Below the pieces are notes generated by a model that saw only the letters and a list, made by a program, of their open reading frames with translations, had not been told where the DNA came from and ran no database searches. Below are positions 2,282 through 5,238 of a DNA stretch of 14,640 nucleotides, piece after piece. This DNA comes from a virus. Taxonomy: Duplodnaviria; Heunggongvirae; Uroviricota; Caudoviricetes. Within the stretch, counting starts at the first letter, position 1, and the number at the start of each line of letters is the position of its first letter. The stretch lies in IMG/VR virus record IMGVR_UViG_2630968342_000015. One strand, written 5' to 3'. Position numbers and translations under genes: made by a program.

Positions 2282-2473
2282 TTATCCTTTGGGTTCTATA
2301 CCGCGCCGCTTTAGTTCAGTACGCCCCAACTCTTTAAGCCAGTTGGCTAGGCTTATGCCGTCGCTCTGTGCTTCTTTATCGAATTGCTCTTTTAGCTCTG
2401 GAGAAATTCGCATTCTGAATTGTGGGGATTGCCCGTCCCCTTTAGGGCTTTTATCGCGTTTGATTGTTGACAA
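2282..2473 (-). CDS. Arc/Mnt-family ribbon-helix-helix DNA-binding repressor
   Basis: 63 aa, TTG start with AGGTGA 4 nt upstream. SPQFRMRISPELKEQFDKEAQSDGISLANWLKELGRTELKRRGI aligns by eye with P22 Arc (PQFNLRWPREVLDLVRKVAEENGRSVNSEIYQRVMESFKKEGRI). Confidence 0.65.
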   Translation of the reverse strand: MSTIKRDKSPKGDGQSPQFRMRISPELKEQFDKEAQSDGISLANWLKELGRTELKRRGIEPKG

Positions 2474-2518
2474 GTGGTCACCTATTGAATTAGCCTTTCT
2501 ATTGTTAGGTGGTCACCT
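2474..2518. promoter_or_regulatory. Two copies of GTGGTCACCT (palindromic GGTNACC core), each preceded by ATTGTT; candidate operators
   Basis: Copies at 2474-2483 and 2509-2518, 35 bp apart, in the gap between the leftward RHH gene and the rightward operon. The first copy overlaps the RHH SD. Confidence 0.5.
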
Positions 2519-2534
2519 TAACACAAGAGCACTT

Positions 2535-2578
2535 AAAAAAGCAAAGCCCCGCAAGTGTCATTACCACTCGCAGGGCTT
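2535..2578 (-). terminator. Strong minus-strand rho-independent terminator
   Basis: Arms 2545-2557 and 2565-2577 with a 7-nt loop. Plus-strand RNA has two C.A/A.C mismatches that become G.U wobbles in minus-strand RNA, giving 13 uninterrupted pairs. Followed on minus by TTGCTTTTTT. Confidence 0.7.
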
Positions 2579-2616
2579 CTAACCAACAACGTAAACTAGG
2601 AGCCGTTATGGTTGCT
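2535..2616 (-). ncRNA. Candidate ~80-nt cis-antisense RNA covering the SD and ATG of the Icd-like gene (predicted, unverified)
   Basis: The terminator above, plus an extended -10-like TGGTATATG on minus (plus coordinates 2623-2631). The transcript would be complementary to AGGAG (2598-2602) and the ATG at 2608. Confidence 0.3.
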
Positions 2617-2805
2617 GTAAATCATATACCACACCTTGTACACACACAAACGGCCTTTGTGTGGCGTTTTCTGGCACTGAGTGCCGGAGAATCTCAAATC
2701 ATCCACGTAACCGCCTGGACGGAACGCGAAGCGCGTAGCCGTTGCCCGTCCGGTTGTGTTGCTGTATTCGCCGCCCGTATTCGTCAGGGGGGGTGCCATG
2801 CCTGA
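2608..2805 (+). CDS. Icd-like small protein (P4-type host cell division inhibitor family), first gene of the rightward operon
   Basis: ATG 5 nt after AGGAG; 65 aa. The pattern FVWRFLALSAG...IIHVTAWTEREARSRC...VAVFAARIRQ resembles Icd-like proteins of P4-like prophages, from memory. The ORF-track start at 2509 is an upstream extension. Confidence 0.5.
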   Translation: MVAVNHIPHLVHTQTAFVWRFLALSAGESQIIHVTAWTEREARSRCPSGCVAVFAARIRQGGCHA

Positions 2806-3124: not shown

Positions 3125-3424
3125 ATGAGAACGTATTTATCTGGCTTTACTGCCAGCGGTTATGCACACCCCAAAATTATCCCCGGCGCTATTTATCTGG
3201 ATAAGAACGGTAACAGAGTAACGGTAAAAGAACTGATGTTTGACCGTGTGTATTTTATTCGTGATGGCTATTCATTTCATAGTTCGCTGAACGTGGAGAT
3301 CTTTATTAGCAGATTCCGGCGGGAAATCCCGCTTTCCAGAAATAACCATGTGTCATGTATGGATGTTGATAAAAAACTACAGGAACTGAAAAACATGATT
3401 GCCGCGTGGAGAGAGCAGAAATGA
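3125..3424 (+). CDS. Hypothetical protein, possibly DUF4222-like
   Basis: 99-aa ORF. GAIYLDKNGNRVTVKELMFDRVYFIRDGY resembles small DUF4222 proteins found upstream of primases in enterobacterial islands (recall only). Confidence 0.55.
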   Translation: MRTYLSGFTASGYAHPKIIPGAIYLDKNGNRVTVKELMFDRVYFIRDGYSFHSSLNVEIFISRFRREIPLSRNNHVSCMDVDKKLQELKNMIAAWREQK

Positions 3425-5238
3425 AAAAAGCGCCAAATTTAAAACACCAGCCGCGTGACAAAATGACGGAAGTCATCATTTTTGCGGGTAGTGATGCGTG
3501 GGCACATGCGAAGCAGTGGCAGGAACAGGACGGGCGACTGGCTGGCGATAACGTGCCACCTGTCTGGCTTGGAGAGCAACAACTTGCCGAACTGGACAAC
3601 CTGCAAATCGTACCGGACGGACGCTATCGCGTGCGTCTCTACCAGGCGGGGTTATTGCGTCCGGGGCTTGTTAATACCATCGGGCAGAAACTGGCAGCGG
3701 CAGGTGTCAGGGATGCTGATTATTACCCTGAAGGAATGCACAGCCAGAAACGGGAGAACTGGCGCGAATATCTGGAACGTGAGCGGGGAGAGCTGGCGGA
3801 AAAGAAAAAGGTAGTTGAACTGCCTGTAAAGAAAAAAGAGCGGGTAAAAGACGATAACGCTTCATCACTGGCGCTTAACCAGATGGGAGCAAGTCAACGC
3901 GGCGAAGTTCTCCTGGCACATTATGGCGGTGAACTGGCGATTCATGCTGACTCTGACACTGTTCACTATTACAACGGCGTTGTATGGGAGCCAGTACAGG
4001 ATAAAGAATTACAGCGAGCTATGGCGCAGATTTTCATTGATGCGGAGATCAGCTATTCGCAGAACGCCATTAAATCGGCGGTCGATACCATGAAGTTAAG
4101 TTTGCCTGTAATGGGGAATACAGCCCGTAACCTGATTGGATTCAGTAACGGTGTTTTTGATACCCGGACAGGCGATTTTCGGGAGCATAACAAAAACGAC
4201 TGGTTGTTAATTGCCAGTGAATTACCTTTCAGCCCACCAGCAGAGGGGGAAACGCTGGCAACACATGCGCCGAATTTCTGGAAGTGGTTACGCCGTTCGG
4301 TGGCTGAGAATGACCGCAAGGCGGATCGCGTACTGGCTGCATTATTCATGGTGCTGGCGAACCGGTACGACTGGCAGTTATTCATTGAGGTAACAGGTCC
4401 AGGGGGAAGTGGTAAAAGCGTGATGGCGGAGATTTGCACCATGCTGGCGGGTAAGGCCAACACGGTATCGGCAAGCATGAAGGCGCTGGAAGATGCCAGG
4501 GAACGCGCGTTAGTGGTTGGCTTTTCGCTGATTATCATGCCGGATATGACCCGTTACGCTGGTGATGGCGCAGGAATTAAGGCCATTACAGGCGGTGACA
4601 AGGTGGCAATCGACCCGAAGCATAAAGCCCCCTACTCAACACGCATTCAGGCGGTAGTGTTGGCGGTGAACAATAACGCCATGTCATTCAGTGACCGCAG
4701 CGGGGGGATTTCACGTCGTCGGGTGATATTCAATTTTTCGGAGGTTGTACCGGAAAACGAACGCGACCCCATGCTGGCAGAAAAAATAGAAGGAGAGCTG
4801 GCGGTTGTGATTCGCCACCTGCTTACTCGTTTTTCTGACCAGGACGCAGCTAAACGCCTGCTGTATGAGCAGCAGAAATCAGAAGAAGCTCTGGTGATAA
4901 AACGCGAGGGCGATTCGCTGGTGGACTTCTGCGGCTATCTCATGTCGTCGGTAATGTGTGATGGTCTGTTAGTGGGTAATGCCGAAATTATTCCGTTCAG
5001 TCCGCGCAGGTATCTTTATCACGCCTATCTGGCATATATGAGGGCACACGGATTCGGTAAACCTGTAACACTGACGCGCTTCGGTAAAGATATGCCGGGG
5101 GCAATGGCGGAATATGGCAGGGAGTATATGAAACGGAAAACGAAGCACGGTTTGCGTTCAAACGTGACACTGACGGAGGAATCAGAAGACTGGATGCCAT
5201 CATGTGTATCGGTCACTAATGACGATAGCAAAAATTAA
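3421..5238 (+). CDS. P4-alpha/D5-type primase-helicase (SF3 helicase with a C-terminal origin-binding region)
   Basis: ATG at 3421 (GGAGAG 7 nt upstream) overlaps the previous stop. Walker A GPGGSGKS at 4396-4419 and Walker B-like LIIMPD. Overall resembles the P4-family primase C-terminal domain. An iteron origin lies immediately 3'. Confidence 0.9.
   Translation: MKKAPNLKHQPRDKMTEVIIFAGSDAWAHAKQWQEQDGRLAGDNVPPVWLGEQQLAELDNLQIVPDGRYRVRLYQAGLLRPGLVNTIGQKLAAAGVRDADYYPEGMHSQKRENWREYLERERGELAEKKKVVELPVKKKERVKDDNASSLALNQMGASQRGEVLLAHYGGELAIHADSDTVHYYNGVVWEPVQDKELQRAMAQIFIDAEISYSQNAIKSAVDTMKLSLPVMGNTARNLIGFSNGVFDTRTGDFREHNKNDWLLIASELPFSPPAEGETLATHAPNFWKWLRRSVAENDRKADRVLAALFMVLANRYDWQLFIEVTGPGGSGKSVMAEICTMLAGKANTVSASMKALEDARERALVVGFSLIIMPDMTRYAGDGAGIKAITGGDKVAIDPKHKAPYSTRIQAVVLAVNNNAMSFSDRSGGISRRRVIFNFSEVVPENERDPMLAEKIEGELAVVIRHLLTRFSDQDAAKRLLYEQQKSEEALVIKREGDSLVDFCGYLMSSVMCDGLLVGNAEIIPFSPRRYLYHAYLAYMRAHGFGKPVTLTRFGKDMPGAMAEYGREYMKRKTKHGLRSNVTLTEESEDWMPSCVSVTNDDSKN

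Follow-up and report, generated by a model that had tools for sequence, protein, structure and literature searches.

A minus-strand RNA element, probably a cis-antisense regulator, at the head of the replication operon of a capsid-forming satellite island

The island and the start of its replication operon

The window, as we call the whole stretch of DNA analysed here, is the 14,640-nucleotide viral record IMGVR_UViG_2630968342_000015. Pfam matches identify an integrase, alpA, a primase-type replication module and the island's own capsid, protease, portal, TerS and TerL genes; tail genes are absent. This gene set is the one described for capsid-forming PICIs (bioRxiv 10.1101/2022.09.08.507074) and, judged by it, the window is a capsid-forming PICI satellite island of E. 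coli. The paper in question (bioRxiv 10.1101/2022.09.08.507074) is silent on repressors, promoters and antisense RNAs. In E. coli strain G1/2, which matches the window with 100% identity, the island is inserted in tqsA and adjoins pntB. A 651-nt region around the hairpin element that is the subject of this report finds at least partial matches in 1196 of 5426 complete E. coli genomes, O157 strains included. The features that frame the element are the following.

1-1218: integrase (Pfam)
1593-1781: alpA (Pfam)
Between alpA and the plus-strand operon, minus strand: small genes
2282-2473, minus strand: divergent small ribbon-helix-helix (RHH)-like gene, presumed repressor of the module
2467-2496, plus strand: operon promoter TTGACA-18-TAGCCT, as read from the sequence (TTGACA at 2467-2472)
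2472-2518: operator repeats AAGTGGTCACCT (2472-2483) and AGGTGGTCACCT (2507-2518), flanking the operon -10
2598-2602, plus strand: Shine-Dalgarno sequence (SD) AGGAG of the icd-like gene, antisense target
2608-2610, plus strand: ATG of the icd-like gene, antisense target
2608-2805, plus strand: icd-like gene (NF033153, NCBIfam Icd-like, E 5.8e-18), first gene of the operon
3406-5238, plus strand: D5-type primase-helicase, to which the icd-headed operon leads
Further genes of the island (Pfam): SSB, major capsid protein, prohead protease, portal, TerS, TerL

The plus-strand operon thus runs from the icd-like gene through an unknown ORF and a DUF4222 gene to the primase-helicase. On the other side of the promoter, the divergent gene is recognizable as RHH only through weak matches to HicB and TraJ (E 4.9e-4 and 7e-3). 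The initial annotation had seen here an Arc-like repressor and an echo of the P22 immI arrangement; as a functional analogy this holds good, whereas homology does not. The family matches extend upstream of the internal ATG at 2413, so that the RHH-like frame apparently requires a TTG start at 2473. This start codon (2471-2473) overlaps the -35 of the operon promoter (2467-2472), and the promoter of the repressor gene must therefore sit either between 2474 and the hairpin or beyond the hairpin.

Two minor features of this region can be mentioned. Between the internal ATG of the RHH-like frame (2413) and the operon -35, the plus strand carries a small hairpin, GGGGA-TTGCCCG-TCCCC followed by TTTAGGGCTTTTAT (2424-2455), which may be a weak terminator shielding the operon from int/alpA read-through; it is absent from the list produced by our consensus terminator scan. 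RefSeq also annotates a 247-aa hypothetical protein (WP_001304194.1) at 1839-2582 on the plus strand, antisense to the small minus-strand genes. Its frame crosses the operon promoter and both operators and stops within the hairpin element. The protein has no family match, and in a relative the corresponding gene carries a pseudogene flag; the gene call is probably spurious.

A strand-biased hairpin at a module junction

The position of the operon promoter puts the element about 40 nt into the plus-strand 5' leader. On the minus strand, it belongs to the following set of features, given in the direction of increasing coordinates.

2533-2542, minus strand: U-rich tail GCUUUUUUAA, which together with U2545-2543 reads UUUGCUUUUUU; predicted 3' end at about 2535-2540
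2543-2579, minus strand: SL2, predicted terminator hairpin with which the antisense RNA would end; 15 bp, of which 3 are G.U, and a 7-nt loop
2581-2613, minus strand: SL1, AACCAUAACG[GCUCCUAGUUUA]CGUUG-UUGGUU, with the anti-SD CUCC in the loop
2614-2616, minus strand: predicted 5' end of the antisense RNA, placed by inference 5-7 nt after the -10
2626->2621, minus strand: candidate -10 hexamer TATGAT, inside icd codons 5-7
2649->2644, minus strand: candidate -35 hexamer TTGTGT, 17 nt upstream of the -10, as read from the sequence

The initial annotation described the hairpin as a 13-bp stem (2545-2577) whose two mismatches in plus-strand RNA turn into G.U wobbles on the minus strand, and noted that it adjoins the SD and ATG of an Icd-like gene. 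The sequence bears out both statements: on the plus strand, 2545-2557 pairs with 2565-2577 except at C2550.A2572 and A2553.C2569, which become U.G and G.U on the minus strand. Read on the minus strand from 2579 to 2543, the stem is rich in G+C (8 G-C among 15 bp), has a short loop and is followed by GCUUUUUU (2542->2535). A U tract accompanies the hairpin on this strand only: the minus strand reads UUUGCUUUUUU whereas the 3' flank on the plus strand is UUCUAACCAAC, for which reason SL2 cannot be a plus-strand terminator. The further proposal that the hairpin is an intrinsic terminator on the minus strand alone agrees with the consensus scan and is strongly supported by the comparison with relatives presented below. 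In folding calculations, the minus strand reaches -29.0 kcal/mol (z -3.9, with 1 of 200 shuffles as good) against -16.3 kcal/mol (z -2.2) for the plus strand. Terminator-like hairpins are not rare, however, the scan finding five in 2.5 kb where 2.8 are expected; as one such hairpin could be due to chance, the weight of the argument rests on the relatives.

About 250 related loci were assembled from exact matches to the hairpin in IMG/VR, from relatives of the Icd-like gene and from metagenomes scanned for the conserved flank. Every true relative has the element between an operator-flanked plus-strand sigma-70 promoter and the SD of an icd-like gene. The promoters found at this place in relatives are clearer than that of the window (TTGACG-17-TAATAT and TTGACA-17-TATTAT are examples). 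The upstream modules are mutually unrelated, each with an operator repeat pair of its own in the same geometry, and the small divergent minus-strand genes differ from module to module (weakly RHH-like in the window, elsewhere YlcI/YnfO). Clustering yielded 29 upstream groups, a few of which are chance matches to the search anchor, hence roughly 20-29 true modules; on the downstream side, the element is found with at least three icd 5' types. BLAST matches in E. coli genomes break at query positions 288-324, equivalent to 2537-2573 of the window. As these positions lie inside the hairpin, the element marks the junction where immunity modules are exchanged. Identical hairpins join unrelated flanks, and the element stays with icd when repressor modules are swapped.

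Several observations made in the course of this survey deserve mention in their own right. Three relatives carry a second full promoter-operator-hairpin unit about 750 bp upstream of the main one (L002, 1670-1900; L088, 1600-1830; L022, minus strand, around 8995); next to it comes an icd-like ORF in decay (MAIKEHSLLFIHTQTPRKR...), with TTGTGT-17-TATGCT still present on its minus strand. From their sequence, these units look like tandem or relic immunity modules. Two environmental metagenome contigs, seemingly non-enterobacterial (L205 and L231), show a G+C-rich hairpin, CTCTAACCA, a small stem-loop around an SD and an ATG, followed by ORFs that are not Icd-like. This layout may point to a wider family, or be a matter of chance. 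What seemed an additional gene type with a TATAAT hexamer (L032, MVADYKV) proved to be a tRNA region to which the search anchor had matched. An Icd profile search of genome contigs returned two loci only, and neither the hairpin nor icd had a match in the phage collection.

At least 24 hairpins that differ in sequence are found at this one site, which allows the two strands to be compared. Folded individually, 22 of 24 distinct variants are more stable as minus-strand RNA, by 6.1 kcal/mol on average, and G.U pairs number 59 in the minus folds against 14 in the plus folds. RNAalifold, applied to 28 aligned minus-strand sequences, all of them distinct and full-length, predicted 18 pairs, five of which have changes on both sides. 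Within the same alignment columns, 97.6% of the SL1 and SL2 stem cells are paired when read as minus strand and 80.2% when read as plus strand; for the 13 pairs of SL2 the figures are 97.2% and 83.1%. Wobble-type cells are entirely one-sided: all 87 are G.U in minus-strand RNA and C.A or A.C in plus-strand RNA, where no G.U occurs and 99 mismatches are counted; the sequences being related, such cell counts overstate the number of independent events, but the direction of the bias never reverses. It recurs at differing stem positions among independent types (the window type, CACTG/CAGTAA, GCTGGCG/CACCAAC, CAGTG/CACATAC and others). In 500 shuffles, neither the pairing nor the covariation score of the real alignment was reached, and pairing fell to 36-48% when the partner columns were slid. 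The comparison of homologs that had been suggested as a check, namely whether they preserve minus-strand pairing through G.U or compensatory changes, thus reveals both a one-sided G.U bias and covariation.

The tail behaves in the same way. Of 44 distinct flanks, which derive from unrelated modules, 39 have five or more U among the nine minus-strand nucleotides that follow the last G-C pair; some relatives have weak tails such as UUCGUCGUUUC. The persistence of both minus-strand structure and U tail in unrelated modules indicates that a minus-strand RNA, predicted to end at SL2, is under selection. From the sequence comparisons, we consider it highly probable that the element is a selected minus-strand RNA element. 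A minus-strand protein gene was considered and set aside: the minus-strand ORF that stops before the terminator (2814->2596, 72 aa) ranges from fewer than 10 to about 100 aa among relatives and is not conserved.

A second stem-loop and a candidate promoter over the icd start

The conservation around the element is not confined to the terminator. Immediately upstream of it in the minus direction, the complement of the icd ATG and second codon pairs with the complement of the invariant sequence TCTAACCA to form the basal stem of SL1. The plus-strand flank (T/G)TCTAACCA is invariant among relatives and its complement, UGGUUA, pairs with AACCAU, AGCCAU or UAGCUACC depending on the icd type, so that the existence of a second minus-strand helix explains why the flank does not vary. 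Pairing in this basal stem amounts to 98.6% on the minus strand versus 72.9% on the plus strand, a bias which implies that the selected RNA extends at least to ATG+6. Above the basal stem stands an apical stem-loop, which in icd types 1 and 3 displays the anti-SD in its loop. The antisense strand therefore combines a conserved structure, attested by covariation in SL1 and SL2, with a complement of the target (CUCC) in the SL1 loop.

In icd type 2, the SL1 loop has 7 nt and occurs in 12 different sequences between invariant flanks. Viewed on the plus strand, these loci (L007-L048 and L129-L247; equivalent of window 2590-2600) present a stem-loop CGATA-N7-TATCG just before the SD, with 12 purine-rich 7-nt loop variants while some 40 flanking bases remain invariant. 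These sequences give the impression of an RNA loop under diversifying selection. The idea that the hypervariable loop is the target of a same-strand RNA such as C4 was rejected, no complement being found at any fixed offset, which leaves the opposite strand as the only built-in partner.

The transcript would begin within icd. The initial annotation had pointed to an extended -10-like motif, TGGTATATG, at 2631->2623 on the minus strand. The motif is there, but the hexamer that is conserved is the overlapping TATGAT at 2626->2621. TATGAT, TATGCT or TATAAT is found at a fixed place on the minus strand, within icd codons 3-7, in 102 of 102 distinct icd genes, which encode about 17 different N-terminal peptides. 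The window has TATGAT, another type TATGCT, and type 2 TGgTATGAT, which His->Tyr variants turn into TGgTATAAT. The His codon that supplies the key A of the -10 is CAT in 97 of 97 genes versus 26% CAT at the other His codons of the same genes; a single silent CAT->CAC change offers a simple experimental handle. The fuller arrangement TTGTGT-17-TATGMT occurs in icd types 1 and 3 and in a decayed icd copy whose Icd reading frame is lost. TTGTGT overlaps the conserved codons HTQT, however, and does not count as independent evidence; more generally, the overlap of both the -10 and the -35 with codons confounds their conservation with protein constraint and shared ancestry. In the window, the candidate promoter TTGTGT-17-TATGAT, which likewise overlaps icd codons, scores 8/12 and is absent from the scan list.

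When the relatives' sequences are cut 7 nt after the hexamer, the resulting RNAs all have the same length and, in every type, fold into SL1 and SL2 from nt 1-2 onward, the predicted 5' end coinciding with the base of SL1. The evidence for the promoter is good but circumstantial. The original proposal of an RNA of about 80 nt antisense to the translation start of icd gains support from the minus-biased SL1, the fixed position of the -10 and the constant predicted length.

The same region of icd contains a further structure on the plus strand, a terminator-like hairpin CACACAAA-CGGCC-TTTGTGTG followed by GCGTTTTCTG (2643-2673, inside codons 12-22). Types 1 and 3 of icd possess it and type 2 lacks it; its position overlaps that of the candidate antisense -35. 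From its sequence, it could be an attenuator coupling icd translation to operon read-through.

Proposed antisense control and its alternatives

The reading that best accounts for these features, and one that we regard as reasonably likely, is that of a discrete cis-antisense regulator of about 76-81 nt, with its ends at about 2615 and about 2535, that would mask the SD and AUG of icd. The comparisons establish minus-strand selection on the structure, the U tail, the constant position and the conserved -10-like element; expression of the RNA, the site of its 5' end and its function we infer. Transcription would start at a sigma-70-type promoter within the first icd codons (TTGTGT-17-TATGAT), and the RNA would fold into SL1, with the anti-SD in its loop, and SL2, the intrinsic terminator. 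SL2 would halt minus-strand polymerases about 30 bp short of the start site of the convergent operon promoter, and termination at that distance suggests that the effect would be post-transcriptional rather than promoter occlusion. Folding indicates that the complementary stem-loop in the mRNA presents the SD in a 12-nt loop, and the most likely course is a first loop-loop contact between it and SL1, after which a duplex would form and initiation of icd translation would be blocked. Full complementarity to the leader, SD and AUG makes such a block the most likely outcome. Lost translation would in turn bring down the output of the replication genes farther along the operon, by way of polarity or mRNA decay. 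In a silent island, repressor/operator control would thus be reinforced by a post-transcriptional lock; after derepression, strong plus-strand transcription would run across the antisense promoter.

Other explanations must be weighed against this one. The minus-strand terminator could be real and yet serve as an insulator or attenuator, stopping operon-derived antisense transcription before it reaches the operon promoter and the repressor gene; alternatively, it could lie in a long repressor mRNA leader begun inside icd, in the manner of the lambda P_RE transcript antisense to cro. A repressor-type gene does follow the terminator, in the minus direction, in every module, and the apparent TTG start at 2473 together with the lack of a clear repressor promoter at 2474-2540 would suit this explanation. 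We nonetheless find this unlikely. A 15-bp stem with a U tract would end most transcripts short of the repressor gene, the element remains with icd through exchange of the repressor module, and the minus-biased SL1, fixed -10-to-SL1 distance and hypervariable loop all favor a discrete structured RNA.

Still less probable are two readings in which the minus strand has no role of its own. The hairpin might work in the plus-strand mRNA leader, as a 5' stabilizer or a processing or protein-binding site, its resemblance to a minus-strand terminator being incidental. Every relative does have the hairpin some 40 nt inside the plus-strand 5' UTR, and the plus strand still folds at -16 kcal/mol. Yet all the wobble-type substitutions favor the minus strand (the 87 versus 0 G.U cells and 99 plus-strand mismatches noted above), the A-rich 5' flank that encodes the minus-strand U tail is kept in unrelated modules, and the complete turnover of the arm sequences argues against a sequence-specific protein site, so that we consider this explanation quite improbable. 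A DNA-level inverted repeat or recombination linker, marking the mosaic junction between immunity and replication modules, would be in keeping with the break of BLAST matches at 2537-2573 and with the joining of unrelated flanks by identical hairpins. We give it very little credence as the sole explanation, since a palindrome provides no reason for a one-sided G.U bias or a U tail and since different sequences are found at the same place with the structure kept. The two readings are compatible, however: a functional RNA element can double as a crossover point. An antisense RNA, for its part, would explain why a short element is nearly invariant at a junction where immunity modules are swapped.

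The control of Gram-negative PICIs and P4-like satellites is currently explained by AlpA and poorly characterized repressors. If the antisense reading is correct, a post-transcriptional layer over the first gene of the replication operon would have to be added. It is tempting to speculate further, by analogy with plasmid incompatibility, that the RNA is an immunity determinant with a specificity of its own, its hypervariable SL1 loop letting each of several co-resident islands (up to six matches are found per genome) silence its own icd and replication operon only, and that the RNA might also act as an antitoxin to a putatively toxic Icd-like protein. These are doubtful extensions; in the latter case, the RNA would help island stability.

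Judging from the literature found and from Rfam, an antisense control layer over a satellite replication operon appears not to have been described previously. An Rfam search of both strands assigned no family, the sole match being a weak rnk-leader that reflects likeness to a terminator, and a search of the literature on Icd-like antisense or small RNAs, PICI antisense RNAs and cf-PICIs found no paper describing this RNA. Esr41, also covered by the search, lies in OI-43 and is unrelated. By architecture, the closest known system is sar of phage P22, reportedly a cis-antisense RNA of about 69 nt whose promoter lies inside the start of its target gene, ant, which encodes the antirepressor; the RNA is said to cover the ribosome-binding site and end at an intrinsic terminator, with an RHH repressor adjoining and a strong lytic-type promoter converging on it. 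As predicted, the island RNA would share with sar the placement of its (here candidate) promoter, the coverage of the ribosome-binding site, the terminator, an RHH-like neighbor and a convergent promoter, but there is no sequence or Rfam relationship between them. The targets differ as well, ant in P22 and an icd-like gene heading a primase operon in the island, and the island RNA would consist of two stem-loops with its terminator in the mRNA leader, whereas that of sar is in an intercistronic region.

A looser likeness, without homology, exists to IS10 RNA-OUT/RNA-IN and to type I pairs such as SymR/SymE. There, two promoters about 100 bp or less apart face each other, and the signals for translating a potentially harmful protein, SD and AUG, are hidden by an antisense RNA some 70-80 nt long. 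Those elements head a single gene, the island element a long operon.

By target, the closest relatives are the C4 RNAs (Rfam RF01695: c4 of P1/P7, CI of P4, with their a/b target sites), which control icd translation through pairing with the SD. A C4 RNA and its target share one coding strand, and the C4 RNA, a processing product of the operon transcript, works by means of two short loops. The island RNA would come from the opposite strand and be fully complementary. C4 and isrK (RF01394) models found no match at gathering score in the window and none at E<=10 in 2250-2900, and the window is devoid of tandem isrK/C4/icd cassettes. The same search gave matches in five relatives (L013, L020, L030, L047 and L077), where the order, as in L020 at 3235-3898, is icd1 - isrK (RF01394) - C4 (RF01695) - icd2 - a1b1 site - C4 - icd3. 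In these relatives, the second and the third icd-like gene each have a C4 copy ahead of them, and the loops of the copies co-vary with the SD region that follows. The presence of C4 RNAs before the later icd-like genes suggests that antisense RNAs repeatedly target the translation starts of icd genes.
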